Virus record (IMG/VR): IMGVR_UViG_3300009503_000020
Span: 56,718 to 120,717 of that record
Origin: a virus
Reading direction: 5' to 3' (one strand)
DNA: 64,000 bases
Under the pieces are notes generated by a model. That model was not told where the DNA came from and did not search any database. It was given only the letters and a program-made list of their open reading frames with translations. A program made the position numbers and the translations under genes. This document shows, in pieces, positions 35,354-61,188 of the stretch; the stretch's first letter is position 1, and every line of letters starts with the position of its first letter.

Positions 35354-36214
35354 TTAGCTTATGTTAGTGATCTTGACACATGCATTGGAATCTGTCAATT
35401 CTACACCATATTCAGTGTAGAAGTACAGCTCTATTGAGTCTGTATCAGGATTGTCCCAACGCTTCATGTCAAGATGTCTCCTAATTGCCATCCAAGCTGC
35501 TCTATCTGGATCAACTACCAGAGCTACATTGTCCCCATCTGGTATTTGAGTTGTTACAAGAACTTTAAGTCCTGCTATCTTACCAATCTCTCCATTCAAG
35601 ATTGGTTCATTGCTGCCATACTTAGAAGCATCTATGAACATGTCAGTTGTCAAGATACTCTTCAAGTCATTTGGATGGATTACTAGGAACTTAGGACTCC
35701 AGTTAGCAGCTCTTATCTTTGCAACTGCAGCTGATATTACTTTGTATGCATTAACTGACCAGGTTCCTTCTGCAGTTGCATTAACTGTATTTGTGGTTGT
35801 AAGTAATTCAGTTATGATGTCTGAGTCTTCCTTAACAGCTAATGCAATACCTGCTTCAGTTATTGCATCTCTTATCAAGTTCAGTTCACAGCCTTCAATT
35901 GCCTCTTGGGTAATCACAGCCCAAGTGCCAACTTTAGTTGGGTGTATTGTGCTTGCAGAGTATGTCAACGTGCCAGCATTAACAGAGCCTTTTAAGCTAG
36001 TTCCTTCAGAAACAGAACCAGCTGAAAGTGTAGATCTGCGACCTACAACTATCTCTCTGCCTTTAGTCCTTACAAGGTCTTCATTTATTCTGACCAAGTT
36101 ACGACCAAAGCGTCTAGCACGAGCAGCTTCCTCTACCTCATTAAGTATAACTTTTGGTATCAAGTCATATATCTCAGCTTCTTTGATAGTACCCAGTTCT
36201 TCTAGGCTTTTCAT
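35354..36214 (-). CDS. Major capsid protein (HK97 fold)
   Basis: LIPKVIL...KVGTWAVITQE...IHP...NGEIGKIAGLKVLVT; GGTGA RBS 7 nt upstream of 36214 (alternative start 36220). Confidence 0.88.
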   Translation of the reverse strand: MKSLEELGTIKEAEIYDLIPKVILNEVEEAARARRFGRNLVRINEDLVRTKGREIVVGRRSTLSAGSVSEGTSLKGSVNAGTLTYSASTIHPTKVGTWAVITQEAIEGCELNLIRDAITEAGIALAVKEDSDIITELLTTTNTVNATAEGTWSVNAYKVISAAVAKIRAANWSPKFLVIHPNDLKSILTTDMFIDASKYGSNEPILNGEIGKIAGLKVLVTTQIPDGDNVALVVDPDRAAWMAIRRHLDMKRWDNPDTDSIELYFYTEYGVELTDSNACVKITNIS

Positions 36215-36266
36215 TCTCATGTCACCTTTCAAGGTACAGAAGTACATAGAACATATTTAAGTGTTC

Positions 36267-36574: not shown

Positions 36575-38767
36575 TTAAAACTTCTTTTCTTTAGCTAGTT
36601 TGTGAAGGACTTCTGCCCAGTGTTCTTTCAAGTAGGCATAGACTTCTTCTTCACTAGGTTCTTTCTTCTCTTCCTTTGGAGGCTCTTTAGGTGTTTCAAC
36701 TTTAGGCTCTTCTTTCTTTACCTCAGTAGGCTTTGTTTCCTCTTTTGGTACTTCTGTCTTGGGAGGAACTTCTTTCTTGGGTTCCTCTTTCTTAGCTTCC
36801 TCTTTTGGAGGTTCCGCTGGTTTCTTTTCCTCTTTAGGACACTCTTCACAAGGTTTCTCAGTCATTTTCTTTTCCTCAGTAGCTGTACTTTGTGGTTCCT
36901 CCTTTTTAACTGTTTCAGCACTCATCTTTACTTTCTCTGCTAAGGCTTTAGCTTGCTCATCTGGACCTGGAGGAGAAGTTATCCTTTCACCTGGCTTCAT
37001 GTCAGTGAACTCACGTCCACCACTTGGTGCTGTAACGGAAGCAGCTGAGGCAGGAGCAGGATACTTTTCTTTTCCTTCAACAGGGACGCACTTCTGTTCT
37101 TTCTCGTCCCATACTTGTCCTGCTGGGCATTCTTCTTTCTTCTTAGCCTTCTCTTCTTTCTGTTTCTTATATGCCTCTGCACATTCTTTCATTCTTTTAA
37201 CTACTGGCATTGTCTTGCTTTCTTTCATACACTTCTTCATAAAGTCTATATAGTCTGAAGCAAGAGGCAATGCATCAACTAGCTCATCTATTTCTGTATC
37301 ACTAATCTCTGTAGAGTTCTTAACCTCCTCTGATTTCTTTTCAGGATACCCATAATAGGGATAGTATCCTTTTACTTTCTTTTTCTTCTTTAGTTCTTCA
37401 AGGTCTTCCTCAGCTACTTCCATAGCAAAGTCTTGGCCATTTTCCTCGACTAAAGCTACTCCCATTTTCTTTGGATATCTGCCATATGGATAACCATAGT
37501 AGGGATAGTACTCAGAGTACGGATAACCGTAATATGGATAATAGCCATAACCAGGATATCCATAGCCAGGGTAACCATAATAGTAAGCAACTATCTTCTT
37601 TGCTTTCTTGAGTTCAGCCAGCTCATCTTCTGTATCGAACTCTATCTCTTCTCCCTCTTCAGTTATTGCTAGTCCTTTCTTAGTTCTCTTCTTTTCTGGA
37701 TAACCATAGTATGGGTAGCCATAGTAAGGATAGTTTCCTTTGCCATAGTAAGGATAGCCATAATGAGGATAGCCATAATAGCCATAGTAAACTGCTACAA
37801 CCTTCTTCCCTTTCTTTCTTAGAGCCTCAACCTCTTCAGGAGATTCGACTTCAAACAATGCATAGAGAGACTTCTTCTCTGGTTTCTTGACCTTGCCTTT
37901 TGGTTTGCCATAGTATGGGTAATAAGGATAGTATGGATAGTGTGGATATGGATATTTCTTTCCATAAGGATATGGATATCCATAGCCATAGTAGTAGCTT
38001 ACTATCTTCTTAGCCAACTCAGCATCAAAGTCTGCAAGTGAATCAGCTTCAACAACAGCATACATCTTTGGTTTCTCTATTTCAGAGAGATCTATTTCCT
38101 CTTCCTCTAGCTCTGCAATAATCTCTTCCTTTTCTTCTGACATATCTTTCACTTCTGTTGTAGTTACTTGAGAACTTTCAATATTTAAGTCTTCTTTCTT
38201 TCCTTGGTTTAATTGCTTGGAAAGCTCTTCAACAGCAAAGATAAAACACTTTTCACATGCTGGATTCCTAACCAAGGAAAGTTCATTGAATAGGAAATTA
38301 AAACCTATACTCTGTTCCTCATTAATTGGAAACTTGTCTATCCAAGTAGAACAGGAGACAGCAGGAAACGTTCCATTCTTTACTAACTTAATAGCTTCAG
38401 GGTCAGTTACTTCTGCTTGGAAGACAATAGACTTAAGTGTCTTATCATAATAAGCTTTAGTTACTTTACCTACATCTCTTGCTAAGAAGAGAGAATCCTG
38501 ACCATGTTCTACTTTAAGAGGTTTACCAACTAATCTGTCTGCAGCCTTCTGTATCTCATCTGCTGGATAAAATACATTCTTCCAGATGCCTTCAGCAAGA
38601 GCTATCCCAGTAATCATCAGTTTACCCTCTTTCTCTTCTAATGAGAAGAATGGAGCTGCAGATAGTATTACTTCTTCTTTAGTGATGTCCTTTGCTTCTC
38701 TAATCCTCTTCTCTAGTTCTTCACTTTCAGCTCTTAACTCTTCAAAGATACCAGAGTTATCTACCAT
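36575..38767 (-). CDS. Prohead protease-scaffold fusion with Tyr-rich repeats
   Basis: N-terminal caudoviral protease (GIALAEG, LKVEH, VGKV, PAVS, ELSLVRNPAC), then four Y/G/P-rich units and a PKEE-rich tail. Confidence 0.8.
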   Translation of the reverse strand: MVDNSGIFEELRAESEELEKRIREAKDITKEEVILSAAPFFSLEEKEGKLMITGIALAEGIWKNVFYPADEIQKAADRLVGKPLKVEHGQDSLFLARDVGKVTKAYYDKTLKSIVFQAEVTDPEAIKLVKNGTFPAVSCSTWIDKFPINEEQSIGFNFLFNELSLVRNPACEKCFIFAVEELSKQLNQGKKEDLNIESSQVTTTEVKDMSEEKEEIIAELEEEEIDLSEIEKPKMYAVVEADSLADFDAELAKKIVSYYYGYGYPYPYGKKYPYPHYPYYPYYPYYGKPKGKVKKPEKKSLYALFEVESPEEVEALRKKGKKVVAVYYGYYGYPHYGYPYYGKGNYPYYGYPYYGYPEKKRTKKGLAITEEGEEIEFDTEDELAELKKAKKIVAYYYGYPGYGYPGYGYYPYYGYPYSEYYPYYGYPYGRYPKKMGVALVEENGQDFAMEVAEEDLEELKKKKKVKGYYPYYGYPEKKSEEVKNSTEISDTEIDELVDALPLASDYIDFMKKCMKESKTMPVVKRMKECAEAYKKQKEEKAKKKEECPAGQVWDEKEQKCVPVEGKEKYPAPASAASVTAPSGGREFTDMKPGERITSPPGPDEQAKALAEKVKMSAETVKKEEPQSTATEEKKMTEKPCEECPKEEKKPAEPPKEEAKKEEPKKEVPPKTEVPKEETKPTEVKKEEPKVETPKEPPKEEKKEPSEEEVYAYLKEHWAEVLHKLAKEKKF
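37340..38075 (-). repeat. Four tandem units of acidic/basic linker plus (Y/G/P)n low-complexity segment
   Basis: KKIVSYYYGYGYPYPYG..., KKVVAVYYGYYGYPHYGYPYYG..., KKIVAYYYGYPGYGYPGYG..., KKVKGYYPYYGYP. Confidence 0.9.
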
Positions 38768-44833: not shown

Positions 44834-45196
44834 TCATTTCGTTACCTCCTTAGCTATTGCCTCTTCAGCCAAGTAAATCTCTTCCCCTCTAATTACCAAA
44901 TCAAGGACTAGTGCTCTTTTGAAGTGTGGAGAAGGTCTCCATTTAAGCACGAGAGGTTCTACCTTTCCAGGTTGGATAGTTACTGGACCACGAACCTCAA
45001 GAATTTCTGTAGGAGGTAGATTAGGAAATTCATAGACGAGATTAGAGAGTACAGCCTTAGAGTCATTCTCTAAATAAACAGTAATAGTCTTCTCATGTCC
45101 TACTTCTACTTTACCAAAGTTGATTCGTTGAAGAGGGATCTTCTTATCAGGATCTGCCCAGATTAACATCTTTAACTCTCCTGTGCCTTCAGCCAC
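44834..45196 (-). CDS. Ig-like beta-sandwich protein (ASH/MSP-like)
   Basis: INFGKVEVG...ITVYLEN...TIQPG...LVLKWRP. Confidence 0.5.
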   Translation of the reverse strand: MAEGTGELKMLIWADPDKKIPLQRINFGKVEVGHEKTITVYLENDSKAVLSNLVYEFPNLPPTEILEVRGPVTIQPGKVEPLVLKWRPSPHFKRALVLDLVIRGEEIYLAEEAIAKEVTK

Positions 45197-47280
45197 TTCT
45201 CTATGAGTTCTAGCTTCTTCTTTTTCAACTCTAGTTCAATCTTTCTCTCTTCAGGAGTCTTACTTCTCTTCTTAAGCTCATCATCTATTATCTTTGCTAG
45301 AGCTTCATCCTCCATGCTTAGGTGTTTCTTTCTGATAAGTTCACCTTCCCACTTGTGTAGCCCTTGTTTCTTTATCCACTGTGTTGCTTGTTCAACTGTC
45401 CATTCATCTGAGAACCTTACTCTAGATACTCTAGCTCCATGAATTGTCCCTGGTCTAGGATACAAACATACTAGTACTTCTAGAACTTGCTTGGGTGCAT
45501 CCTTCAATTCTGGAATGTAGTCTTCAGGATTGTCTACACATCTGGAGAATGCCTTCTGGTCATATATCTCTAACCAGAAGTAGTTCCAACCCTCTTTCTT
45601 TTCAACTTTGAATGGTATGTAGTAGTCACCTTTAGTAGGATCTCCACTCCTAGCTAATGCGTGAGGAAGCTTAGCTCTCTCAAGTACTCCTCCTCTTCCT
45701 TCTTTATTGATATAAACATAGTATCCTTTCAACTTATTGCCATGAAATATCATTGAGATGAAGTTAGGAGGAGACATATCTATCAAGTTAACTGTACCTT
45801 CATCCACTGGAGTAACATAAGTAACTAGATCTCCTACCATCATCTTAGTCTTAGGCTTATCTATAGCCATCCACTTCTGTATATCTCTGCATATCTTCCA
45901 GACTGCCTTAGCTGATTCTCCTTCTTGAGTCATTTCAGAAGGATCAGCATAGACATTGAATTCAAAACCTTCAGAGATACGGATATCCCAGTGTTTTTTC
46001 AAACCTTCAGGAGTTTCTATCTCATGAATCTGCAAGACAAACTTAGCTTCTTTTAACTCCTCTGCACTTAGTTTCTCTATTGTATAAATAGATGACCCTT
46101 CCTCTTCCTGGGTAATAGTGAACTCTCCTTTCATTTCCTTACCTTTGAAATCTGCTCTTATCAGCTCAGCTCCTTCTTCAGTCTCTCTTTTGAGAGTGAC
46201 TGTTCCTTGATCAACTATTTGCATCTTAGCTGTAAGAGTCTTAGAGGGATTGTACTTAGTGAGGGGAGGAATATCACCTTCATAGTCAAACCACTTCTTA
46301 TCAACAGTCCCTTCATATTCAAGAGGAACAGGAGAGAATCTAGTGAAATCTAAATCAGAAGACCAAGAGTATACCTTGTCTCCTTCTTTAATTCTTAGGA
46401 ACCACTTCTGATGAGGGATTCCTCTAACTACTATTTGTCCCATATAAGAGAGATACTGAACAGTAAACCTAGTTGCTGCTTCTTCTTCCTTAGACTTAAT
46501 ACCTTTCTCCCATGCCTCTTTAACCCATTTCTCCCACTCTTTGTATAGCTCACCTGTTCTCCAATCAGGAGGAACTGGAATGTAACCTTTAGGAGGAACC
46601 CACTTCTTCTTGAAACCTCTAGCTAGACAGTAAGGAGTTTGATCTCCAGGAACTAAGACTCTCCACATTAGTTCAGTTCCTGGTCTTGGTTTTTTCGTTT
46701 CAGGATCAATAACTTGTACATTAACTGCTCTCACAACTACTCTTGTCCAGTCACCACCAAAAGGACCCTCATTGTTGTCACTCTTCAAGAAATATTCATG
46801 GAAGTAAGGTTTTTGAACACCAAAGTGTACCCTTCCTTTATCTACTATAACAAATACTCCAGGATATTCTTTAGTTGAGCCTACTTGTCCTGGCTTAACT
46901 ACACCTTCCACTGTTAACCATACTTTAGGTTGCCTCGCCTTTGTCTCTGCTCTGAAACCCTTGTTCTTGTTGTTCTTAGTAAATTCTATTTTTACTTTCT
47001 TAACCATCTCTCTTCCATCTTCAATAGTGTAGCATGTCTTTGGAACTCCTCCTGGAGTTAATACTGTCCAACCTACTAGATGGTCATCAACTTCCATTCT
47101 CCAGTCAGTATGCACAGAGCGCCCTCTGATGTGCCATTGCATAACATATCTCATTTCTTTCTTAGGTGGAGGATATTCCATGTAAGGTGCTAGAAGAGCA
47201 CCTCCTTGCCCTCCCTCTCCTTCTTTTGGAATAGCTTTCATTACTTCTAACCAGTTAATCATGCTACTCTTGATTTTCAT
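45172..47280 (-). CDS. Protein with three LigD 3'-phosphoesterase-like domains
   Basis: YVMQWHIRGRSVHTDWRME and FVLQIH...KHWDIRI match the PE motif Q-x-H...H-x-D-x-R; the middle copy is degenerate; D.G.V...F.G.KLKG C-terminal elements. Confidence 0.7.
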   Translation of the reverse strand: MKIKSSMINWLEVMKAIPKEGEGGQGGALLAPYMEYPPPKKEMRYVMQWHIRGRSVHTDWRMEVDDHLVGWTVLTPGGVPKTCYTIEDGREMVKKVKIEFTKNNKNKGFRAETKARQPKVWLTVEGVVKPGQVGSTKEYPGVFVIVDKGRVHFGVQKPYFHEYFLKSDNNEGPFGGDWTRVVVRAVNVQVIDPETKKPRPGTELMWRVLVPGDQTPYCLARGFKKKWVPPKGYIPVPPDWRTGELYKEWEKWVKEAWEKGIKSKEEEAATRFTVQYLSYMGQIVVRGIPHQKWFLRIKEGDKVYSWSSDLDFTRFSPVPLEYEGTVDKKWFDYEGDIPPLTKYNPSKTLTAKMQIVDQGTVTLKRETEEGAELIRADFKGKEMKGEFTITQEEEGSSIYTIEKLSAEELKEAKFVLQIHEIETPEGLKKHWDIRISEGFEFNVYADPSEMTQEGESAKAVWKICRDIQKWMAIDKPKTKMMVGDLVTYVTPVDEGTVNLIDMSPPNFISMIFHGNKLKGYYVYINKEGRGGVLERAKLPHALARSGDPTKGDYYIPFKVEKKEGWNYFWLEIYDQKAFSRCVDNPEDYIPELKDAPKQVLEVLVCLYPRPGTIHGARVSRVRFSDEWTVEQATQWIKKQGLHKWEGELIRKKHLSMEDEALAKIIDDELKKRSKTPEERKIELELKKKKLELIEKWLKAQES

Positions 47281-50200
47281 CTATCTCCTCACCTGTATCT
47301 TCATCTACTTCACTCTGAACTTTCCACTCTTTATAACCATAGTAGTAGGATTTCACATATCTACACTTGTAATGGTTAGCAAAGGGACACACTATTGGAT
47401 ATTTGAGGTACTCTACTAAGATACTACTTAAGTTATCTCTAGGCATCCTAAATCTTTCTTTGAGTGGACAAATTCTCTCATCATTCCAGAAAGGACAGAT
47501 AGGCAAATCAAAGACCCAAGCTCCTAGTTGTTCAGGAGGTGGACCTGTGCCTATAGCTACTAACTTCTTGACCACATCTATTGAATCTGGTTCTTTCTTT
47601 GCAGGATGTTTTCCTTCATAGTATGGGAACATCCATGTATAGTATATCTTTCCTTTAGGATCTTTAAACTCAGCTATTCTGATAGGTCTTACAGTTACAA
47701 TAGTACCTGGACTTACTTTCTCTCCTGTGGCATAAGTTCTACCTATCCAGAGATAGCACTTACCATCTCTCTTTACTATATCTCTCTCCCTATATTTGTC
47801 TAAGTCTTTGCAAGGAACTGCGAAGATGCACTCATACAAGTATTGATTAAGAGGCTTCCCTTCTTTTGTCTTCTTCTGTATCACTTTCCAGACCATCACA
47901 TCTATCTCTTTAAGGTTCTTAAGTTTAGCCCAATCAGCAGCTCTGTTCTCTCCTGAATACTTAATTGGGTAGATTGAATCAGATGCTTTAGCTACTATAC
48001 CTTCTGAGTTCATCAAGGAACGATATTTCTTTGCTAACCTGAAGAATGTTTTCATGTCAGTGGCTTTTTCACCGTCTATCCTCTTCCAATGCCTCAAATT
48101 ATCTGGAAAGACTTTCTTAATTGCTTCCCATCTTTCTACATATGGCTTGTCATTCAAAGGTTCTCCATTCAAGTATGTACAGTCATGCACGTGGAAGACT
48201 ACATTCTCATCATCTAATTCCTTCTTCTCTGCTCCTATCCATTTGATCATCTCTTCACGAGGTACTTGTTCACACATGTCTGGATGAGAAACTTTCTTGT
48301 CTCCACAAGCATACTCTACCATCTCTGCATCTATAATAAAAGAGTCAGCTTTCTTGTTCTTAAGTAACTCTGCAAGTGATTTCTTGAAGACAGAAGCTCT
48401 ATCTCTTTCTCTATCTTCAGTAATAAACTTGCATTGGTTTCCTTTGCAGTGGACCTGGAACCTCATGCCATCAAACTTCTTCTGTACTATTATCCCTTTA
48501 TCAATGTACTTCTTAGCCCATTTATCCCACATCTCTTTTATATCCCAAAACTCATTTTTCTGAAAACCTGACTTTGGTTTTAGTCCAATGTATGGTTTGA
48601 ATATCTCTGCCTTTGCTCCAGCTAAGAATTCAAAAGGAGAAGTTCTTCGCATCTCATCATCTGAGACTCTTTCAAAAGAGAGTCGATAAACAGGAACTGT
48701 CATTCCAATGTGAGGTCCCTTTGAGTCCCAAACAAAGTGAAGACGCTTAGCTACTTCTGGATCTCTCTCAGATATCTCATTGAGAAATGCTCTTATTGTT
48801 GGGACATGATACCAACCTTGTTTGAACAATAAGTCTATATCATGAGATGCAGGTATCTTGCCTTCATTGACTACTCTCCCACATAGATAGACATGAATAG
48901 GATCTTCAACGAACACTTTCTCTGGAAATGCCTTCAGTACTCTTTCAAGAGTGATCTCCTCTTCTGAGGATATTTGTTGAGGAACTCCTTCTTCAGGTTC
49001 AGGATACTCAATAACTTCAAGAGATGTTGCTCTGTCTAGTCCATCTTCTATCTGATGAGGAAGTTTTCTCTTCTGCATTTCTTTCCAGACAAAGATGTGA
49101 GCATTCTGAAGAGGCTCTGTCACCTTTCCTAGCTTCTTGAATATCTCATGTAGCTTCTTGTGTAGAGCCATAAGTTGGTCGTCTGTTAGCTTAGAGACAT
49201 AGACATCATCTATATCCTCTAAGTTAGGAATACCTACCTGAGTTGGTTCTGGTACTGTCTTAGCTTTCTCTTCTGTTTCTTTCCAGGGAATCTTATCTAC
49301 ACCTATTTCTTTAATAACAGTCTCAAAGAGTTCTCTTGCGTGTTTCTTGTAAGTTTCAGGCTTGTTAAAGGTAGCTCCTCTGTCAATTAATTCTTTAACT
49401 ATTGCTACTGCTAGTTTCTTGCAATCCTCTTCTGTTATTGGTAAGTCTCCTACATCTGTGTGCTTAGTTATCTTCTTGCCTCTCTTGATAGAAGAATACC
49501 AACCTAGTACGATACGGAAATCATCTCCTACCTGAGCTCTTGTATACTTCTTCAAGTTCTTAATGTATTGATTAACCCAGTCTTTCGTTGCTTCTTTGAT
49601 TAGTTCTGTTTGGAGTAGACCTCTGTTGAACATCTCTTCAGATACTTTAGCAAACAACTCATCTGATATCTCTAAGTCTGCAAAGTCAAATAAGTCAAGG
49701 ATAGTTAGTGACTTCAAGTCCTGAAACTTAATGTTCTTAGCATCCACAAAGACCTGGATACCTTTTGGGAGTTTGACAGGAATAGGAGGCTCAAACTGTT
49801 CATCTATCCTAAACTCATAAGCATAAAGAGGAGCATCTTCTTTCCAACCCCAATGCTTGAATGCTTCTTCATCTGTTATTTGATGCTTGTCTCTTAGCTT
49901 CTTGAATTCTTCAGGACTTATCTCATAAGGCTCTTTGAGAGTAATGATACCAAAGCAGAGTTTATCTTGCAATAGATACAATGGTTCGTTAATGTGACTA
50001 GTGAACTTCTTAGACTTAACAATTAACGTCTTCTGTCCAGTCATAATCATCTCTGCATGAGGAGCCACTAGGTATAGACCTGCCTTAGGCTGAATCTTAG
50101 CTATTGTTTTAGGACTAACAGGTTCTACTTCTTCAGTTGTAGTCTTACCCAATTCAGATTTCTCCTCTAGAGTTATCTCTTTACCATCGAAAGCTGGTTC

Positions 50201-50827
50201 TACTTTAATACTATCTGAGTACCCTCTTATTTGTTCCTTTCCTTTCTCAACGTCCTTTAAGAACCACTCTCCAAAGTGAGTGACAATTATACGTTTAGCA
50301 TTCAACTTCTTAAAGAGATCTGCTAGATTAGGGATACCAGCATGTCCATACACTTCTCCTGTCTTCTTATCTCTTCTTATCATGCCTCCCTTCCTGTTGA
50401 ATGACCCATCAGTTATTACTAAGTCTAGGTCTTTCAACAGATCCTGATATTTCTTCTTAATCCAAATAAGATCTCCAGTGTACAAAACTCTAAGGTGATC
50501 CTTCTCAATCAAGTAAGCTACAGACCTCACTTTCTTTGAATGAATAGTAGGGATGGGTGTAACTTTTATGTCTCCAACTTTCATAGGCTCCAGGAGTTTA
50601 ATATTTTCTGGATAGAAAAAGTGTGGAGGAGGTTCTTCTTTAGTTCCTATCCAGAATGCATGATCTGGATGGAGATGGGTACAGAAAATCTCTTTAGGCT
50701 TTAGGTCTAGAAACTCCTTCTCACCTACATCAAACAGAATTCCATCTATGAGAATCCCTGAATGCTTCTTGTGCATAGGTGCAGAGGAGTCTACTTCGCC
50801 ACGAGTGCCAAGAAACTTTATGTGCAT
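47264..50827 (-). CDS. Multidomain protein: MBL hydrolase + ASCH-like + Pol-beta NTase-like + ATP-dependent DNA ligase
   Basis: FLGT, THLHPDH, TGD and THF (MBL); LYLVAPHAEMIMTGQKTLIV (ASCH); LCG...HDIDLL (NTase); KKFDG, DAE, VHD, EGIVAK and WAKLK plus OB domain (ligase). Confidence 0.85.
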   Translation of the reverse strand: MHIKFLGTRGEVDSSAPMHKKHSGILIDGILFDVGEKEFLDLKPKEIFCTHLHPDHAFWIGTKEEPPPHFFYPENIKLLEPMKVGDIKVTPIPTIHSKKVRSVAYLIEKDHLRVLYTGDLIWIKKKYQDLLKDLDLVITDGSFNRKGGMIRRDKKTGEVYGHAGIPNLADLFKKLNAKRIIVTHFGEWFLKDVEKGKEQIRGYSDSIKVEPAFDGKEITLEEKSELGKTTTEEVEPVSPKTIAKIQPKAGLYLVAPHAEMIMTGQKTLIVKSKKFTSHINEPLYLLQDKLCFGIITLKEPYEISPEEFKKLRDKHQITDEEAFKHWGWKEDAPLYAYEFRIDEQFEPPIPVKLPKGIQVFVDAKNIKFQDLKSLTILDLFDFADLEISDELFAKVSEEMFNRGLLQTELIKEATKDWVNQYIKNLKKYTRAQVGDDFRIVLGWYSSIKRGKKITKHTDVGDLPITEEDCKKLAVAIVKELIDRGATFNKPETYKKHARELFETVIKEIGVDKIPWKETEEKAKTVPEPTQVGIPNLEDIDDVYVSKLTDDQLMALHKKLHEIFKKLGKVTEPLQNAHIFVWKEMQKRKLPHQIEDGLDRATSLEVIEYPEPEEGVPQQISSEEEITLERVLKAFPEKVFVEDPIHVYLCGRVVNEGKIPASHDIDLLFKQGWYHVPTIRAFLNEISERDPEVAKRLHFVWDSKGPHIGMTVPVYRLSFERVSDDEMRRTSPFEFLAGAKAEIFKPYIGLKPKSGFQKNEFWDIKEMWDKWAKKYIDKGIIVQKKFDGMRFQVHCKGNQCKFITEDRERDRASVFKKSLAELLKNKKADSFIIDAEMVEYACGDKKVSHPDMCEQVPREEMIKWIGAEKKELDDENVVFHVHDCTYLNGEPLNDKPYVERWEAIKKVFPDNLRHWKRIDGEKATDMKTFFRLAKKYRSLMNSEGIVAKASDSIYPIKYSGENRAADWAKLKNLKEIDVMVWKVIQKKTKEGKPLNQYLYECIFAVPCKDLDKYRERDIVKRDGKCYLWIGRTYATGEKVSPGTIVTVRPIRIAEFKDPKGKIYYTWMFPYYEGKHPAKKEPDSIDVVKKLVAIGTGPPPEQLGAWVFDLPICPFWNDERICPLKERFRMPRDNLSSILVEYLKYPIVCPFANHYKCRYVKSYYYGYKEWKVQSEVDEDTGEEIDENQE

Positions 50828-50831
50828 CTAA

Positions 50832-51158
50832 TCACGCTACATAGGCTTCTTTTTTTAGAGAGGAATATTCATCTTTGAGTTTATTTTTCATCATCATAGT
50901 GTACTTAGTGTCAAGTTCCAAGAAGTCAACTGTCAGTTTCTCAAATGCTACAGCTAACTTCTCCAGTTCATCTGCACTAAAGCGTTCCATGACAGTGGCA
51001 TTTGTCAACCAAGAATTCCAACCAGTTACTGAACTAGCTAGTGCTGAGTTCATATATGTTAATTTAGAGACAAAGGATAACCTATCATCTACTTTCCATT
51101 TCTTTATCTTCTCTATTTCTTTCAATGTCTCTTGTATCCAATCTTTTTCTTCTGACAT
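50832..51158 (-). CDS. Hypothetical helical protein
   Basis: 108-aa ORF with AGG RBS, contiguous. Confidence 0.55.
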   Translation of the reverse strand: MSEEKDWIQETLKEIEKIKKWKVDDRLSFVSKLTYMNSALASSVTGWNSWLTNATVMERFSADELEKLAVAFEKLTVDFLELDTKYTMMMKNKLKDEYSSLKKEAYVA

Positions 51159-51159
51159 T

Positions 51160-51480
51160 TTATCCTACATCCTCTATTATTTTTATCACTATATCTGGTG
51201 CAGTCAACTGTTGTCCATTCACATATATTATTTCTATTTCACCTTTATATTCTCCAGATAAGTCAACAAACGTAGTACCAGCATCAAAACTTACTTTCCC
51301 AGAAGTAGCATCCTCGACTGTCCCTGTTAGAGAAAACATCATGTCATTGCCATACTTTTTAAACTTGAGAACTACAGAAGAAACTGCTGCTAGGGAAACA
51401 GCATTGCCTTCCTCATCTTTAATATAGAAGACTAGGGGAAAGTTCTTGTCTCCTTTTACTATATTAATAACTGTGCCCAT
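51160..51480 (-). CDS. BppU N-terminal-like Ig domain protein
   Basis: IVKGD..PLVFYIKDEEGNAVSL...DATSGKVSF...GEYKGEIEI. Confidence 0.65.
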   Translation of the reverse strand: MGTVINIVKGDKNFPLVFYIKDEEGNAVSLAAVSSVVLKFKKYGNDMMFSLTGTVEDATSGKVSFDAGTTFVDLSGEYKGEIEIIYVNGQQLTAPDIVIKIIEDVG

Positions 51481-51540: not shown

Positions 51541-54500
51541 TCATCTTCTTCTTACTTTTGCAAAGTATTTTTCTCTCCACCTTAGGTATCCAAAGTAACT
51601 CGCTTTCCAGATAAGTCTTGCAAATGCAATTAGAGGAATGGGAGGTATCTCCCATTTGTCCTGAAGTGTTAAACTTGCACTCAATGATAAAATAAATGAA
51701 CACAATCTTGAAAAAGTGGGAAGAAGTTTCAAGCTTTCTATACACTTATGAGAGAATGATCTGGTCCATTTCTCCAACAGTTGAAGAGCTTCAGTTAGGG
51801 AGAGAAGTCTTGTTTTAGTTAATGAAGCATTCAAGGTAAGACTTGACAACATTTCTTTTCTTTCTTCCTTTTGGATATTAGCAAGAGAGAAGAGCGATTC
51901 CAATACTAGCTTATAACTTAGAGAAATGAAGAACTCTTCCAGAGTTAAAAATGCAAGAATCAACTGGCCTATTCGTTTTATGACTGTCTCAGAAGCAGAA
52001 AGCACTTCTGTAGCTAACTTATAACTTTGAACAAGACGATGTTCCTCTAGTGTTAATGAGGAAACAATTGACGTGCTTGTTTGTTTCAAAGTAACATCAG
52101 AAGGAACAAACAATTCAAAAATCGATTTGTCAATTTGTTTTCTGATAGCGTCTAGAGAAGTAAAGAGTCCAAAAACTGTCTTTCCTATTTGTTTTGTGAC
52201 AGCTTCTAAAGAACTGAGACATTCAACAAGAGTCCTGAAGAAATAGGCTGAAGATGTTCTCGAAGCAATAAGGAACAAAGTTTCAAAACATAAGATGTAT
52301 TTGAAGGGACTAACAGTATGCACCAGTTTCAAAGAATCAACTATAGTTCTTAAGTATTGTATTTCTCTCTCAAAAGTGCCTGTTAAAGTTAGCAATTCAG
52401 TATATGTCTTTTTAGCTGTCCAAGTTCGATTGTAAATATCTGACAAGCTGACAAGTTCATTTGTTATAGCTGCCCTAGCTTCTAATATTGAATAAGCAAG
52501 TCCCAAACTCTCGATTAAAGTCTGGATAATAAAACTTTCCTCACTTCCCCAACTTCCATGAGCAGGTTCAGGGTCAACCCATTTCCGCACAAAGACCCAA
52601 TCCACATACATATCTACTGAATTGGATGTTCCATCATTATAACCATAAATATAGAATCCTAACAATATTTTAAGCAATGTTCCAGATGCAAATGTACAAG
52701 TAGTTGTCCATGAGCTTGAGTCCCGCTCATATTTTGAACCAGATGAGTTATGAGCACTTCTGCAAATGTAATTCGTATTTGTTGCCCATGTGACAACCTC
52801 CCAATATCCGCTGCTAGTACCCGCAATATAATAATCATATGAATCAGGTGATGTTGCTAACCAGAAAAAGTAGTAACCGTTAGACCTTGCATTAAAACCA
52901 TATTGTCTAACAGTTGGGAGGGATGCGAAACGCATCTTACATTCAAACTTCTTATTTAAAGGGTCAATTCCATTGAGCGCTTGTATTGCTGGGTTAACTC
53001 CAGTTGAAGGAGCAGAATAAATGCGTACTTCACTATTAGCAACAGTTATAGAACCTTTCCCAGCATTCCACTGCCACTTGCTAGAATCAAGACTTGTCCC
53101 AAGAAAATCATCAAAGAATATAAACGTATTATCTCCATTACTTGTTGTTGTAGCAGTTGCATTCCCATAATAAATGTAAATTGTAGCGGTGTTTGTGCTT
53201 AGGTCATCTGCAACTTCAACCCAGAAAATAGCAACGGTTTTTTTTCCATCCAATACGTTAAGAGAAGGTTCAATTAGTAAACCATGCCCTAAATTCGTAG
53301 TTGAAGAACTATAACCACCATAATATATCCATAGTTCATTGTTTGTAGCATTAAATGTTGACTTCGTAATGTCATCAGTCATAACCCACACCGCATCAAT
53401 AACTGTTCCTTCCCATGAACTACCAGCAACTGTTGAATGTGCTACTTGAATAAATGTTCTACTGCTTGAATAAAATGTTGGTGAAGTATCTTTGTAAAGC
53501 TCTAGACTGTTAGTTTGGTTATTGAAAATAAACAAATAGTAGTAACTTCCATACTTAACAACACTTGTCATATAGCGTCCATTAGTGAAAATAGGATTGT
53601 TTGAGTCTCTAGTCCAGTTAATAAGGTCAGTAGACGTTGCTAACCCAGTTGCTCTATTCGTACCTGAGGCAACATTGTTATACCAAAGATAATAAGTAGT
53701 TCCTACTTTTATTACACTCCAAGGCTCACAATTTGTTTCCCATCCACCGATAGGTTCAAGAACAGGATTATCGCTGTTTTGAACAGTCCAAGTTATACCA
53801 TCAGGACTTGTAGCATAAAAAGTTCTCCATACACTGTCGCCAGAATAAACACCACTAAAAAGCATCTTATATGTAGAATCTTCCTTCCACACGTTTGCAC
53901 AAGTCACACCATTATTGTATTTTGTTCCTGCTTTACCTTCAAGCACTGGAGTAGAAGGATTATCTGTCCATCCCGTTTTTCCATCAGAGGACTGTGCACG
54001 ATAAATCTTTCTACCAGTTGCAGCGTATGGTTTAGTATAGTATTTATAATAGTAGCTTCCATCTTTCACTACACTTATAGGATAATCCATTCCAGTGTTG
54101 CTAAGAACTTGTATTGGATTACCAGAATATTCAGAATAGTTTTCTGTTCCAGTACCTTGGAACCAATAATCCAAAAGCGTAGTGCCATCAGACTCCGTGA
54201 ACCTCACATCACCAAAGTCTGTTCGACAATGCCGATTGAGATATACATCAGCACCACTATCTGTTCCAGTACCATAATGAGCTACTATTTTAACTTGATA
54301 GTTTGTTCCAGCGCCTGAAGAAGAGTTGAACATATGACATTTACGATAATTCCAACCAGAAAGCCAGTTGGGGATTTGTGCAAACTTCACATTGTATGGA
54401 CTTGCCGTTTTCGTCATGTATGCTAAACCTATTTTCCCATCATAAGCCTTATAGAAGCATGTGAGTCTGGAAGAATTGGACAACTGTTCTACGCTTTCAT

Positions 54501-55440
54501 CAATCCAGTCTCTCCATGGACCCCAAGTGCCAGATGAAGCCGTATATTTAATATAGTAGATGTGATTTGCAATCCAGCCACTAGGTGACCCAGTTGTTCT
54601 AGTTGCTGCGAAAACATATAAGTCATTTGTTGGTGTGATACTTATCACTGGAGCTGAGGTGCCTGTTGTAGCAGCCTTTAGTGTTGTTTCAGCACTAAAA
54701 GAGTTTGATAAGTAAGTGTATTTAACATAGCGAATGTCGTATGGGGAGGTTGTCAGAAAGACTACGTGAACATCATCTCCCTCAGCAACTGCTGTATAAT
54801 AATAATTTAGAAATATCCTCGATGTTGCAGCTACTTCTGTGCCCCAAGATGAACCATCCCATCTCTTTGCTTTCACAGGAGAATCTCCTGCATAGAGAAC
54901 AAGCATTTTTCCAGATGTCAATGGAATCGGAGTAACTCTCCAAGTATTATCTGAAATTGTTGACAGTTGAGTTATTGTTCCTGATCCAAAAATTCCATTG
55001 TTGTATTGGCTTTTAATTACGAAAGGATAATAATTCCAGCCATCGTAATCGAAATATCCAATCCAAACGTATCCATCTGAATCAACAGAAACCATAGCAT
55101 TAGCAGTGTGGTTATACTTTGTTGAAATAGTCTGCTCATTTGTACTCCAACTGATTGTCCCATCACTATTCGGTGTTCCCCTACGATAATATAACGAAGA
55201 AGACATAGCATAGACATAGTGTAGGTATGTTCCATCAAACCAAATGTTAAAGTAGGAAGCAGTTGCTGTTCTGATTGCTGTTGGTGATGTCCACGTTAGT
55301 CCATCCGTGCTTGTTCTATAAACCTCGTTAGTGCTATCATTATAAACAACCCAGAATCTTCCATTTGCATAGAAGCTTCTATGGCTGCAAGGCCAAACCG
55401 TTGCGTAAAAGTCTGCAGTTGTTCCAACAAGACTAGGCAA
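51541..55440 (-). CDS. Large adhesin-like protein: propeller + DUF2341 interrupted by a GH32/43-like propeller + lectin-like + repeat stalk
   Basis: WLSGWNYRK...DFGDVRFT...LLDYW, then an NPVLE...YKMLFSG...NPIF propeller, then FWVEV...IYIYYGN...FFDDF. C-terminal E-x-L-x-L-x-D/E repeats. TTG start. Confidence 0.7.
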
Positions 55441-55684: not shown

Positions 55685-56137
55685 TTAGCTTAATGTATAT
55701 TGCCAAGAGACAACTAGAGTGTCACTTGCTCCTTTGTTAATCACTGCAAATGTTTGTCTACATAGCATTGTGCCACCAGATGAAGCATTAAACAGACCTG
55801 ATTCTGTAATAGCTCCTGTGCCTACTCCAGCATCAAATGTAGCATCATTCTTCCAGATAGTATTAGCTGTTCTTGTATATCCTCCTGCAACTCTGGAAAT
55901 TTCTCCACCAAGAGCAGTATCTGAAGGAGAAGGAGCTGAAGTTGCTGTTCCAATAGCACAGTATCCAAAGCCAACTGGTTGTCCTGAAGTTTTGCCCATC
56001 ATGTCACAAACAGCAGCAAAACCAGTGTTCACTGTTATGTTCTTCACATGCCTGTAAGCCTTAAGCCTCTTGTTATCATCATACAGGAATACTTCAAACT
56101 CTCCTTTTAATCCAGTAAGTTCAAGCACATCATTCAC
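55685..56137 (-). CDS. Phage structural protein (tail-collar/fibre-anchor-like)
   Basis: KNITVNTG...AIGT..SAPS.SDTALGGE...ITESGLFNASSGGTML pattern, common in tailed-phage structural genes. Confidence 0.55.
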   Translation of the reverse strand: MNDVLELTGLKGEFEVFLYDDNKRLKAYRHVKNITVNTGFAAVCDMMGKTSGQPVGFGYCAIGTATSAPSPSDTALGGEISRVAGGYTRTANTIWKNDATFDAGVGTGAITESGLFNASSGGTMLCRQTFAVINKGASDTLVVSWQYTLS

Positions 56138-57464: not shown

Positions 57465-59843
57465 CTAAATTGACACCGAGGGTTTAGATTTTTTCTCTAC
57501 TTCATGAGTGTAAGCTCGATGAGCCCATCTTGTTCTCCTTAGTTCTTGTTTCTTCTTTTCAATGAATTTCTGCAACTCTTTTCCCTTCTTTCTTCCACAC
57601 TCTTCTGCTAGCACCTCTTTCAAATAGTCATCTAAAGTACTAGCTCCAACTACTTCTATCTTGTAATCAGATTCCTTAATTGAATGCTTGAAGTTCTTCA
57701 TTGGTATAACTACCTTCTTAAAACCCCAAGCTTCAGCAGCCTTAATCTTCTCATGAACTCCTCCTACTGCTGTAATCTCTATCTCATCCTCTGCAGAGAT
57801 GTTGATCTCTCCTGTTACTGCTACATCTTGTCTTATTGGTTTACCTTCCAACAGTGAACAAAGTAACAATGCCATAGTTACTCCTGCAGAAGGACCATCT
57901 ACACTGTATGCTTGGGAGAAATCTATATGAGTAAAATATTCTTGAGCAATATCAACACCATACTTTTGAAGGATAACAGAACGTACCTTCTCAGCAGAGT
58001 CATTAATCCATTTAGCATCTTTAGCTATCCCTGTAACTTTATAGTAACCTTGTTCTTTTGTCTTGGAAGTTTTCTTGACCATTTGAGCTTTTACTCTTAA
58101 GATGCTCCCTGTCATCTCTCCAGAATACTGATCAGTAACAACAGCTAATCCATAGATAGTACCAAGTTTTGTTCCTACTGGTTTAATCTCTAATAGCTTA
58201 CCCTGTTCCTGTACTTGGTGCTCGAGTAACTGCCGTTGGATTGTCTTGCAGTGAACATCTAGAGCTTCTTTTACTTCTTCTACCCCTACAACAGTCTTAC
58301 CTTTATTTTGTGCTAAAGTTCCAGCTGTCTTTATTACAGCTATTAATGGTCTAAACTTACACACCAGAGAGTCACGTTTGTTAGACCTACGCCTTCCTTC
58401 TTCAACTAATTCAATACATGCTTCTCTAGAGAATGGAGGTAAGTGAAATCGCTCGACTTCCTGAGAAATGAACTGCACATATTTTCTTCTATTCTCAATA
58501 GTATTAGGCATGTCATTATTCATTCTAACAACTTTTCCATAGCCATAGATACGATCCATTAAGGCTGGATGAATTTGGCTTATACTGTCAAAGTTTCCTG
58601 CACCCAGTAAGAAAATAACACATGGAATCGGTTCTGTAGATACAGCCATAGCTGCAGTATCTCCTCCATGCCATTGACTTCTTAATGTTACTGGAAGTTG
58701 TCCATCTTCTAGTACTGTTAAAAGAGTTATAGCCTCATCTGGTCTTAAATTCTTTATCTCATCTAAATATAAAATTCCAAGGTTAGCTCTATGAACATCT
58801 CCAGCAGTAACTCGTTGATGCTCTGGAGTACCCAATCCACCTGTTTGATATGGGTCCCATGCTATGCTCCCAAATAATTGTGAAGATGCATGTCCAGTGG
58901 CATCAATAAATTTAGCCTTTCCATCTGAATTATCCACTAACAGTTTAGGAGCATTTGAAGAAGTGGCACCTCCGATGCCTTTCAGATTACTAGTTCCAAG
59001 TAAGTTTTTAAATATAAATAGCATTGCACCCATGGATAGAGATCCAATTCCTAGATATAACAACTGTGAATTAGTAACCAGACTATTTAAGAAGTAACCT
59101 AGAAATCCACCTCTTGCAGCCCAGTATTGATGAAGAGTTAGCAACCCATCTGCTGCTGCTTTCTCAACATCATCAACCATGACACCAAGACCATAATTAG
59201 TGTACATTAGATTTGGCAAAGGATTTATCCAATTATTCACTGAATAACCAAGTATGAATGCAATTATAAGAATTCCAAACCCGATCATTGTTCCTATGAG
59301 AAGTCTAAAGCCCCATTTTCTCCAGAAACTCTTTTTCTGCTCCTTCTTAGTTTCTATATCTACTATCCTTTTTCCCATACCTGATTGATGAATGCTTATC
59401 TTTGGTTCTCCAGGAGTGCTTTTGTTTTTCCACGATAAAACATCATATAGCTTTATGTCGTGTTCCTTGTACAAGTCTGTTAACTTTTCAGCTAGAGCTC
59501 TACCAATTAAAGATTTACCAGTTCCTGGATCTCCAAGCAATAAGAGGTATGGACCAGGAGATAACTTCTTTTTGACGATGGGTTTTACATTTTCTGGTTT
59601 CTCCCAGTCTTTCCACCATTCTTCTTTCTCAAGGTTCTTCAGTTTATTGATCCATTCATCTAAGCATAGATAACATTCTTGCATAGCCTGATCTTGACCA
59701 ATAACCCAGTCTAGAAGTTTGTCTGAAATTGGAAAGTTCTCTGTGGACTGAAAGTTCTCCCAATCCCAGACTTTTCCTCGAACCTCCTGTGTACCTTTTC
59801 CAAAGAAGTCACGCTTGTCTTCCTGACTTGGCATCTTGTTCAC
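57465..59843 (-). CDS. lonB: Archaeal-type membrane-anchored Lon protease
   Basis: Walker A GDPGTGKS, TM insert between the Walker motifs, HRANLGILYLDEI, DRIYGYG, catalytic DGPSAG and K in HEKIKAA; start may be 59834. Confidence 0.92.
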   Translation of the reverse strand: MNKMPSQEDKRDFFGKGTQEVRGKVWDWENFQSTENFPISDKLLDWVIGQDQAMQECYLCLDEWINKLKNLEKEEWWKDWEKPENVKPIVKKKLSPGPYLLLLGDPGTGKSLIGRALAEKLTDLYKEHDIKLYDVLSWKNKSTPGEPKISIHQSGMGKRIVDIETKKEQKKSFWRKWGFRLLIGTMIGFGILIIAFILGYSVNNWINPLPNLMYTNYGLGVMVDDVEKAAADGLLTLHQYWAARGGFLGYFLNSLVTNSQLLYLGIGSLSMGAMLFIFKNLLGTSNLKGIGGATSSNAPKLLVDNSDGKAKFIDATGHASSQLFGSIAWDPYQTGGLGTPEHQRVTAGDVHRANLGILYLDEIKNLRPDEAITLLTVLEDGQLPVTLRSQWHGGDTAAMAVSTEPIPCVIFLLGAGNFDSISQIHPALMDRIYGYGKVVRMNNDMPNTIENRRKYVQFISQEVERFHLPPFSREACIELVEEGRRRSNKRDSLVCKFRPLIAVIKTAGTLAQNKGKTVVGVEEVKEALDVHCKTIQRQLLEHQVQEQGKLLEIKPVGTKLGTIYGLAVVTDQYSGEMTGSILRVKAQMVKKTSKTKEQGYYKVTGIAKDAKWINDSAEKVRSVILQKYGVDIAQEYFTHIDFSQAYSVDGPSAGVTMALLLCSLLEGKPIRQDVAVTGEINISAEDEIEITAVGGVHEKIKAAEAWGFKKVVIPMKNFKHSIKESDYKIEVVGASTLDDYLKEVLAEECGRKKGKELQKFIEKKKQELRRTRWAHRAYTHEVEKKSKPSVSI

Positions 59844-61188
59844 TGTTCTTTATCTCTTTTTCCTTTTGAAGTCTAATGACACATATGTTACAGAAGGTAG
59901 CAAGTTTATCAAGAGGAATCGCTTCTTCTTGTCTTACTGGGCATTTTCCTAAACCAAAGATGCACTCATCACGGTCTTCTTTAACTGTCTTCTTCTTTTT
60001 CTTGAGTGGAAAGCCTTCAGCAGCTCTCAATGCATTCTCTAGCTCATCAGTACGAGTTATAAGTCCATGTTTAGCATATGCAGAGAGTCTTCTTAGTTTA
60101 AGGTTCTGAAGTTCTGGAGAGTATTCAGAAAACGTCATTGATGGCCTAGTTTTGAATCCTGCCTCTTTATAGTATGGGAATAAGAGTTGTTCTTCAAGCT
60201 GCCTCTTTAGTTCCTCTTGAAAAACTATAATAGTCTTCTCAAAGTCTAGTTCCTCTACTGTCCTTCCTCCAAGTCCTTTAGTCTCAACTCCAAATCCTTT
60301 TGGTATTTCAAATGCAGCCAAGATTTCCATACCTAGCAATTCTAGAAACTCGTGAATACCTCCAATGTCAGTCCTCTTTGCTAATATGTCTGCATCAATC
60401 CACCAAGGCAACACAAGCTCAGTTGCACTCTCAAGATCTGCAAGTATCTTCTTTGCAGCTTTTATCTTCTCAGGAGTAATTTCATGCCAAGGTCCTTCTT
60501 CTGGAGTGCCTACTTTAAATTTAATTAATGGATATCCATGTCTAAAGATAGCTTCACCCAGCGCCTCTTCTAAGTTCAATTTAATCCATGCAGCCTTGAA
60601 AGCAGCTTCAACAGGTGAAATCCCTAAACAGTATTCTCCTAAGGAGAAGAACCTAATGATTAGTACCTCAGAAGGAGCTAGCTTGCGTTCTTCTCCAGCC
60701 CTCTTCCAAACAAATCCAATTACATTTCCTTTGTCATCTAGAGCAATATCTGCTCCTTCTCTTTGGAAGTCAAATTCCTTAGGATCTATTTGAGAAATAG
60801 TAGTCTTACCTCCTTTTCTTACTATCTCAGCTACTCCAAAGCCATAAATGAAAGCATCTTTGACTAAGTGTGGAAGCAGGTTTCTAGTATTAGACTCTTC
60901 AAAGAACCTCAATGCTTTCTCATTCTCCTCATCAGATCCTCCAGTAAAGTATATCTTTGAACCTGTTATTCTCCTTGTAAGCTTATTTATTCCAGAAAAG
61001 ACAAGAGGTTCAAGTCTATATAGCAACTCAGCTCTTTTCATTAAAGTCTCAGAAGGTTCTATTCTCTCAGTAGGTAAAGTCTTTCCTCTCTTGACAAGAG
61101 ACATCAACTGTTCTAATCTATAGTCATGAGTTGGTGGTTTCTTACCAGAGAGAGCCTTTCTAATTACAGCCCATCTACTATCTGACAA
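59809..61188 (-). CDS. Portal protein
   Basis: DAFIYGFGVAEI, IRFF..GEYCLGISPVEAA, GYP.IKFK; directly after TerL. Confidence 0.8.
   Translation of the reverse strand: MSDSRWAVIRKALSGKKPPTHDYRLEQLMSLVKRGKTLPTERIEPSETLMKRAELLYRLEPLVFSGINKLTRRITGSKIYFTGGSDEENEKALRFFEESNTRNLLPHLVKDAFIYGFGVAEIVRKGGKTTISQIDPKEFDFQREGADIALDDKGNVIGFVWKRAGEERKLAPSEVLIIRFFSLGEYCLGISPVEAAFKAAWIKLNLEEALGEAIFRHGYPLIKFKVGTPEEGPWHEITPEKIKAAKKILADLESATELVLPWWIDADILAKRTDIGGIHEFLELLGMEILAAFEIPKGFGVETKGLGGRTVEELDFEKTIIVFQEELKRQLEEQLLFPYYKEAGFKTRPSMTFSEYSPELQNLKLRRLSAYAKHGLITRTDELENALRAAEGFPLKKKKKTVKEDRDECIFGLGKCPVRQEEAIPLDKLATFCNICVIRLQKEKEIKNSEQDAKSGRQA

Follow-up and report, generated by a model that had tools for sequence, protein, structure and literature searches.

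Why should a tailed virus of hot springs keep a DNA ligase among the genes for its head, and join so many further domains to it? The question is raised by the stretch of DNA analysed here (the window: 64,000 nucleotides, positions 56,718 to 120,717 of the IMG/VR virus record IMGVR_UViG_3300009503_000020). On its minus strand lies a gene for a protein of 1187 amino acids, referred to as P0001, and downstream of it the gene for a partner, P0068. From their sequences, the two proteins are quite probably an end-healing and sealing enzyme pair. Incorporation of such enzymes into the capsid is, within the family, moderately probable. The full proposal, that P0001 and P0068 make up a virus-specific, LigD-like heal-and-seal machine in the capsid, acting at entry or packaging, is offered tentatively, as one that comes close to an even balance without reaching it.

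Starting at an ATG, the reading frame of P0001 runs through 1187 codons without a stop, and about 60 close homologous protein clusters, almost all viral, were found in public metagenomes. P0001 is therefore a real gene. AlphaFold2 models of the whole protein and of residues 370–770 (the latter from a 56-sequence alignment) had pLDDT values of 80 and 84, respectively. The parts of the gene, with the evidence for each, are the following.

47264..50827, minus strand: whole gene of P0001, 1187 amino acids, with the order MBL, ASCH, helical, MNT, ligase, OB, Cys4 (open reading frame, domain searches, model)

50165..50827, minus strand: predicted metallo-β-lactamase (MBL) phosphodiesterase of the RNase Z/PhnP/Apyc1 clade, residues 1–221, HxHxDH at residues 51–56 (Pfam, conservation, PDB profile)

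49727..50092, minus strand: ASCH/PUA-like domain, residues 246–367 (phmmer to 2dp9/1wk2)

49013..49702, minus strand: helical region of conserved sequence, residues 376–605 (model; generic helical fold matches)

48668..48961, minus strand: probable MNT, a minimal Pol-beta-superfamily nucleotidyltransferase, residues 623–720 (VIA-align 1no5_B, conserved residues)

47912..48559, minus strand: ATP-dependent DNA ligase adenylation domain, residues 757–972 (Pfam, PDB profile, Foldseek)

47594..47911, minus strand: ligase OB-fold domain, residues 973–1078 (profile alignments to archaeal ligases; model)

47324..47515, minus strand: C-terminal Cys4 module, residues 1105–1168 (conserved C1111, C1120, C1147, C1155)

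The adenylation domain matched Pfam DNA_ligase_A_M above the cut-off (E 5e-22), and the lysine of its KxDG motif is K784 (codon 48476–48478). In an alignment of 27 sequences (A1), K784, D786, G787, E835, E942, and G943 were invariant, while K947, K968, and K970 were kept in at least 90%. When the family profile was compared with archaeal DNA ligases, the match (4eq5, residues 260–560, E 2e-19) spanned the adenylation and OB domains together; the OB region is beta-rich in the model (pLDDT about 90), and Foldseek with the P0001 model returned 6wbo at E 8e-20. Profile and structural searches of P0001 did not detect the N-terminal DNA-binding domain that Lig1-type ligases have. The four cysteines of the C-terminal module were kept in at least 90% of the A1 sequences and in 13 of 13 in another alignment, A4. 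The module is a probable zinc site, modelled with low confidence.

Residues 623–720 form a compact alpha/beta domain in the AlphaFold2 models. The MNT signature hG[GS]-x(9-13)-Dh[DE]h is present as G650-R-x11-D663-I-D665 (D663 codon at 48839–48841), along with a third carboxylate, D701. G650, N654, and D665 were invariant in 56 sequences with identities down to about 28%, and D663 was kept in at least 90% of them. The top structural match was the MNT HI0073 (1no5_B, Z 8.2, rmsd 3.0 Å, 88 of 102 residues), followed by the MNT-type structures 8xeh_E (Z 6.8), 1wot (Z 6.1), and 2rff (Z 5.5). Since these matches span the whole target and the superfamily-defining residues are invariant or nearly so across the 56 sequences, the region was accepted, with moderate confidence, as an MNT-type domain. 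Like HI0073-type MNTs it has the G-x(9-13)-DxD signature with a third Asp; unlike them it lacks a HEPN partner and is embedded directly upstream of the ligase adenylation domain. The domain is too small for a templated gap-filling polymerase.

The MBL domain, whose borders were taken from the model, matched Pfam Lactamase_B_2 above the cut-off (E 2.7e-11). In the 13 MBL-bearing homologs of alignment A4, the metal ligands H51, H53, D55, H96, D119, H162, and H184 were invariant, and at least 90% of them keep H56. Of the named families, PhnP (NCBIfam E 7e-11) and RNase Z are nearest, and the profile matched 1y44, 1zkp, 6kns, and 7t28 in the PDB; the matches to Apyc1 structures (7t28, E 4e-4; 7u2r, E 0.08) were weaker than those to RNase Z. 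The Anti-Pycsar_Apyc1 model (PF23023) was recorded on the MBL of homologs, not on that of P0001. The domain of P0001 is predicted to be a binuclear MBL-fold phosphodiesterase with all its metal ligands.

Residues 246–367 matched TTHA0113 (2dp9/1wk2; phmmer E 4e-5), a protein treated as an ASCH member in PMC6803910. The GxKxxExR motif of ASCH is only partly kept in P0001 (G264-x-K266-x4-K271), and a Pfam search of the region was empty even at E up to 10. Pfam searches with the isolated ASCH, MNT, and C-terminal pieces of P0001 gave nothing useful. The following region, residues 376–605, was predicted to be helical at good pLDDT, with the conserved motifs DDxRI (435–439), TEPLxNAH (570–577), and EYP (607–609). 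Structural searches with it gave generic helical matches only, with no specific fold and no repeat structure, and Foldseek with the 370–770 model gave nothing at E ≤ 0.001. A HEPN identity for this region was considered, and the structural matches gave it no support; no ligase DNA-binding domain was among the top 50 structural matches. Some whole-model Foldseek alignments cover more than 650 columns of archaeal ligases. It may be noted that helical sub-modules of P0001 recur in other multidomain viral proteins. The second of them (residues 524–612, window 48992–49258, LEDID...TEPLxNAH) was found also outside ligases, for example C-terminal to a Dam methylase in P0118; it may serve as a transferable unit for DNA binding or targeting.

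Most of what the initial annotation had read in this gene was borne out: the 1187-residue minus-strand frame lies exactly where it had been placed, and the RNase Z/PhnP-like MBL, the ASCH-like domain, the Pol-beta-like G..DID near 48840, and the intact ligase with KxDG and OB domain were all recovered. As for its helical repeats, the helices are predicted and the repeats were not found. The Cys4 module was absent from its domain list. On the alignments, P0001 carries intact motifs for a DNA-type ligase, an MNT (all catalytic carboxylates), and an MBL.

The partner gene lies downstream and overlaps that of P0001 by 17 nt.

45172..47280, minus strand: P0068, 702 amino acids, three LigD-type phosphoesterase (PE) repeats and a conserved tail (profile, motifs)

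The repeats of P0068 occupy residues 36–175, 265–400, and 406–535, and the conserved tail residues 542–660. When P0068 alone was searched by phmmer against the PDB, nothing was found, and it gave a weak LigD_N score. A profile built from 24 homologs matched LigD PE structures, 3p4h at E 1e-11 and then 3p43, 5dmp, 3n9b, and 2lj6. The three repeats are homologous, as an iterated search started from each third recovered the other two. The H..HxDxR site is kept in repeat 1 (H50/H57/D59/R61) and repeat 3 (H419/H430/D432/R434), and the middle repeat is without it. Hence, of the overlapping triple-PE gene described in the initial annotation, the overlap and the three folds stand and the third catalytic site does not: P0068 is likely triple in fold and double in catalysis. 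The PE domain of LigD takes off 3′-phosphates and 3′-ribonucleotides. A complex prediction for P0068 with residues 973–1187 of P0001 gave scores of 0.33, 0.00, and 0.00, which is no verdict either way.

Related loci were then surveyed for gene order. Homologs of the head genes of the window were located by tblastn in 28 loci (25–100% identity), and the neighbours of the ligase–PE pair were judged only at loci with enough flank. Of the 28, 26 had a PE homolog directly downstream of the ligase and on its strand. Wherever the flank sufficed, portal and LonB genes stood upstream of the pair, and the gene of a protein referred to below as p730 and the capsid gene stood downstream. In at least 10 clusters ligase and PE form a single polypeptide, as in P0025 (1853 amino acids, from an ‘Ignisphaera’ metagenome-assembled genome). 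Ligase and PE therefore appear linked by translational coupling through the 17-nt overlap, by a near-universal gene pair, and by natural fusions.

IMG/VR holds 377 relatives of the family. Among 185,579 species genomes there were two close matches only, both in Guaymas Basin metagenome-assembled bins resembling viral contigs, and the INPHARED phage collection held a single relative, that of ANMV-1. The ligase family thus appears essentially virus-restricted. Its constant core is (helical)-MNT-Lig-OB. MBL and ASCH occur in about half of the relatives; elsewhere Nudix, Dam methylase, 2H phosphoesterase, and pyrimidine-dimer glycosylase (Pyr_excise) are found, all of them DNA-directed or end-healing domains. 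Inteins (PF14890) and LAGLIDADG domains (PF14528) were recorded in the ligase relatives P0003, P0005, P0031, P0033, P0035, P0042, P0047, P0055, and P0062, and in the PE relatives P0238, P0243, and P0266. Such insertions may explain the homing endonuclease gene reported in the structural module of magroviruses (PMC5434244).

The minus strand of the virus also encodes a T4-type TerL, a Mu-type portal, an HK97-type capsid protein, and tail genes. The P0001 gene is within a tightly packed same-strand block that runs from the portal gene (59809–61188) to the major capsid gene (35354–36247), about 33 kb from PolB and RadA; the replication genes are on the opposite strand. The genes of P0001 and P0068 belong to the head operon, and their placement among structural genes, far from the replication arm, was as first described.

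The link to the capsid was strengthened by a further group of relatives. In 15 fetched relatives a prohead-protease domain, XkdF (PF14550, E to 1e-37) or S78-like, is present at the C-terminus; a Pfam tally over 55 distant relatives gave XkdF in 6 and S78 in 2. XkdF was not found in the genome of the present virus. Gene context was examined for four protease-fused loci (L098, L099, L100, and L008). In L098, L099, and L100 the order is (TerL)-portal-(MuF)-[Lig-PE-protease] and then one scaffold-position gene, which is followed by a capsid-family match in L098 and L100 and by a 396-residue gene without annotation in L099. L008 has a like overall layout, but genes for 517 and 96 residues lie between portal and fusion, and three small genes between fusion and capsid gene. 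Three of the four loci thus have the fused gene where a head operon normally keeps its protease. The genome of L098 also has an Amidase_2 (peptidoglycan amidase) gene (L098:1046–1531), so the ligase-PE-protease family may occur in bacteriophages too.

In the window, the corresponding neighbour of the capsid gene is this:

36575..38767, minus strand: p730, 730 amino acids, just upstream of the capsid gene (BLASTP to P0279; Atlas neighbours)

Residues 31–176 of p730 are matched by the C-terminal part of P0279, a Lig-PE fusion (BLASTP E 2e-11). Among the nearest named Atlas clusters to the p730 N-terminus, by protein-language-model features, 23 of 30 were prohead proteases (S78, S77, S78_2); Pfam on the same part gave a weak DUF2213 match alone. 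On the Atlas neighbours and the P0279 homology, p730 is called protease-like. Beyond this N-terminal part it has low-complexity and scaffold-like parts.

The maturation protease of HK97- and T4-type heads acts inside the procapsid. A fusion in the slot of that protease would make the ligase-PE module head-internal cargo, and its position is the strongest available argument for such a role. The prohead-protease fusions give indirect, independent support for a virion-borne enzyme, which had earlier been a positional guess. From relatives in which MNT-Lig-PE and the prohead protease are one protein, encoded in the protease slot, we infer loading of the enzymes into capsids. A more detailed course, in which MNT-ligase and PE enter procapsids along the prohead-protease route, stay in the mature head with the ligase pre-adenylated, and are ejected together with the DNA, is somewhat less likely than not. 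Large proteins do pass through tails, as with T7 gp16, N4 vRNAP, and P1 DarB, so that protein size would be no obstacle to ejection.

On this proposal, the capsid-loaded enzymes would work on the DNA of the virus as infection begins, while the genome is being packaged, or once packaging is over, and their target would be heat- or nuclease-induced breaks in the genome of a hot-spring virus. The PE domains would turn 3′-phosphate or ribonucleotide ends into 3′-OH, as in LigD, and the PhnP/RNase Z-like MBL would open or remove cyclic or blocked phosphates. The MNT might attach a single nucleotide or a few, or carry out a nucleotidyl transfer of another kind. Nicks or breaks in viral DNA would then be sealed by the ligase, which, possibly pre-adenylated at K784, could make one seal without ATP. 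DNA is favoured over RNA as the substrate because relatives carry Dam and Pyr_excise and because a separate RNA ligase is encoded by this virus. The heal-fill-seal kit first envisaged is thus upheld in its healing and sealing parts, by the LigD-type PE, the DNA ligase homology, the gene pair, and the fusions, but not in its templated filling, for which the MNT is the wrong enzyme.

Several observations weigh against a capsid-borne repair machine. P0001 and P0068 are not fused to a protease in the window virus, and in the relatives the C-terminal protease could in principle serve polyprotein cutting alone. A search of the complete genome for Ku (PF02735) was negative up to E 1. With a Z of 8.2, the assignment of the MNT by its fold lies close to the noise ceiling of the tool and leans partly on the conserved motif. 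MBL and ASCH are accessory, since about half of the family is without both. Moreover, a search of the complete genome found P0001 to be the only PF01068 ligase of a virus with its own PolB and RadA, and it could therefore be a late-expressed replication or recombination ligase.

This last point leads to an alternative that we consider unlikely: a general cytoplasmic late or replicative DNA ligase with helper domains, never packaged, that seals Okazaki fragments, recombination intermediates, and concatemer nicks, the head operon setting only the late timing. A RecJ-like protein is encoded beside PolB and RadA, the ligase domain is equally close to Lig1-type replicative ligases and to LigD, and a late ligase activity makes sense because T4 packages nicked DNA poorly. 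This explanation is, however, hard to fit with an adjacency to head genes that is kept in all 28 loci, where the flank suffices, across their whole range of identities, with the module fused to prohead protease in 15 relatives, and with the failure to detect the N-terminal DNA-binding domain of Lig1-type enzymes. It also counts against this alternative that magrovirus groups A and B have a second ligase in their replication module, besides the structural-module ligase that is a putative counterpart of P0001 (PMC5434244).

The substrate may also be questioned. In an RNA or tRNA repair kit directed against cuts by host HEPN or anticodon nucleases, MBL and PE would heal 2′,3′-cyclic-phosphate or 3′-phosphate RNA ends, the MNT would restore 3′ nucleotides, the ligase would reseal, and ASCH would bind RNA. 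The requirement of LigD PE for a 2′-OH near the scissile end counts for it, as does an MBL closest to RNase Z and PhnP. ASCH domains are tied to RNA (PMC6803910), and the 2H phosphoesterase of some relatives is classically paired with RNA ligases (PMC5512222). Yet the sealing domain is of the DNA-ligase type with an OB fold, not Rnl-type; the genome has a separate RNA ligase (genome 36305–37579, L013:16305–17579, outside the window; PF09414 E 4e-16, TIGR01209), so that the virus has two covalent nucleotidyltransferase ligases; relatives add the DNA enzymes Dam methylase and pyrimidine-dimer glycosylase; and about half the family does without MBL and ASCH. RNA repair is accordingly improbable. 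An anti-defence polyvalent effector on entry, with an Apyc1-like MBL that degrades cyclic (oligo)nucleotide signals and a ligase-PE that reseals restriction or Cas cuts, would account for the Apyc1 model on the MBL of homologs, for the weak profile matches to 7t28 and 7u2r, and for the typical polyvalent-protein domains (Dam methylase, 2H, Nudix) of relatives, beside MuF and portal. Nevertheless, PhnP and RNase Z score higher than Apyc1 with the MBL of P0001, neither a partner nor a target with a link to defence could be identified, and nothing supports the resealing of double-strand cuts in the absence of Ku or a factor that bridges ends. Such an effector, which overlaps the capsid-borne repair machine and does not exclude it, is quite improbable. 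Genome circularisation by ligation of cos ends, another role first suggested, was set aside: TerL is T4-type, Ku is missing, and only a 123-bp terminal overlap is known. Both circularisation and anti-defence are possible roles that found no specific support here.

How does the pair compare with known systems? LigD is a bacterial PE-Lig-Pol fusion, with split PE, Lig, Pol, and Ku in Methanocella. P0001 and P0068 share with it an ATP-dependent ligase, a LigD-type PE with H..HxDxR, and a nucleotidyl-adding module; both occur in natural fused and split forms, and the best NCBIfam ligase model is NHEJ_ligase_lig. The curated cut-offs are missed by a wide margin, however (TIGR02779, 63.5 against 227.75 bits; TIGR02776, 59.2 against 373.2). 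No AEP-type polymerase domain was detected in P0001 or P0068; in its place there is the Pol-beta-type MNT, and no Ku is encoded. The triplicated PE, the extra MBL, ASCH, helical, and Cys4 parts, and the place in a viral head operon are further differences. Without AEP and Ku, and with scores below the cut-offs, the pair would be LigD-like in its working but is no member of LigD.

Polyvalent proteins, of which P1 DarB is the packaged prototype, are similar in other respects. They are large multidomain proteins encoded beside portal or MuF (Iyer et al. 2017, PMC5512222), and the shuffling of Dam methylase, 2H, and Nudix among the relatives of P0001, with delivery alongside the DNA as the presumed mode, is alike. 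The family differs in having a constant MNT-Lig-OB core with PE and in a capsid link through prohead protease rather than MuF or portal. A term search of PMC5512222 met ‘ligase’ solely where RNA ligases are discussed, and few polyvalent proteins are given there for archaea.

A ligase embedded in a structural module, a possible counterpart of P0001, has been noted in magroviruses (Philosof et al. 2017, PMC5434244), where neither its domain architecture nor a partner or function is described; the window virus, by contrast, is from hot springs and has one PF01068 ligase. ANMV-1 AJP62006.1 (KP703175) is a true relative, with 26% identity over residues 616–1095. It has the architecture MNT-Lig-OB-PE-PE, with a Nudix gene directly upstream and TerL nearby. 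It is without MBL and ASCH, its PE is fused instead of encoded by a separate gene, and it is annotated only as ‘ATP-dependent DNA ligase’. In view of these two cases, the term ‘undescribed system’ used in the initial annotation was too strong; new here are the Lig-PE fusions in at least 10 clusters and the 15 prohead-protease-fused relatives in head operons.

The repair enzymes of African swine fever virus are present in its virions, according to the particle proteome. They include a base-excision repair set of Pol X, ligase, and AP endonuclease that guards the viral genome (PMC9353306). The likeness is that of a virus-encoded minimal Pol-beta-family enzyme, ATP ligase, and end-cleaning nuclease. 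That giant virus, however, is a eukaryotic one, encodes the enzymes in separate genes, and has a Pol X that is truly templated; it has no evolutionary link to P0001 beyond superfamilies.

The setting of the pair may be described further. The IMG/VR record, recovered from hot-spring metagenomes, is a complete virus genome of 120,717 bp with a 123-bp terminal overlap, which is possibly an assembly overlap, and the window is its right half. The sequencing runs listed for it included none of RNA. RadA, PolB, a LonB-type protease, and DUF2153 give this tailed virus an archaeal flavour. One small neighbour recurs in the related loci:

50832..51158, minus strand: DUF2153 small protein, 108 amino acids (near the Lig-PE pair in 17 of 28 related loci)

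Its position relative to the pair is variable, and in L010, L028, and L034 it comes after PE. Next to it, a 106-residue protein (51160–51480, minus strand) has a weak BppU_N match. The LonB-type AAA+ protease (57465–59843, minus strand; TIGR00764 E 7e-125) comes directly after the portal gene, an arrangement kept in the related viruses L003, L023, L025, L027, and L029, and is an unusual second protease for a head operon. The head module is interleaved with fibre or adhesin genes: a 1299-residue protein (51541–55440, minus strand) has DUF2341, with Laminin_G_3 in relatives, and a gp80-like fibre gene lies at 55685–56137, between the portal and capsid genes. Outside the window there is a full-length eukaryotic-type topoisomerase IB (L014:10338–11891, genome 50338–51891), with Topoisom_I_N, catalytic core, and C-terminal domain at E to 2e-53. 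The left half of the genome also encodes a DUF2201 metallopeptidase/VWA protein (L012:11519–12670) and a MoxR-like AAA+ ATPase (L014:3584–5143).

Virus particles outside the cell cannot repair their DNA, and in hot springs nicks and blocked ends accumulate fast. A repair kit carried in the capsid, if confirmed, would be a new answer of tailed viruses to extracellular DNA damage and, for those that infect prokaryotes, the first virion-borne system for DNA break repair. As an analogue of LigD, it would rely on a nucleotidyltransferase of the Pol-beta type, not AEP, and thermophilic viruses would use it to mend heat or nuclease damage in their genomes before replication. It would also be an end-joining toolkit parallel to LigD and to eukaryotic non-homologous end joining, built from different parts; the eukaryotic pathway likewise has an MBL nuclease, a Pol-beta-family enzyme, an ATP ligase, and a 3′-phosphatase. 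Modular enzymes from such thermophile-associated viruses may serve as reagents for dirty-end ligation. For the viruses themselves, a packaged ligase would make sense of the puzzling one in the magrovirus structural module, and would add archaeal viruses and DNA ligases to the range of polyvalent packaged proteins.

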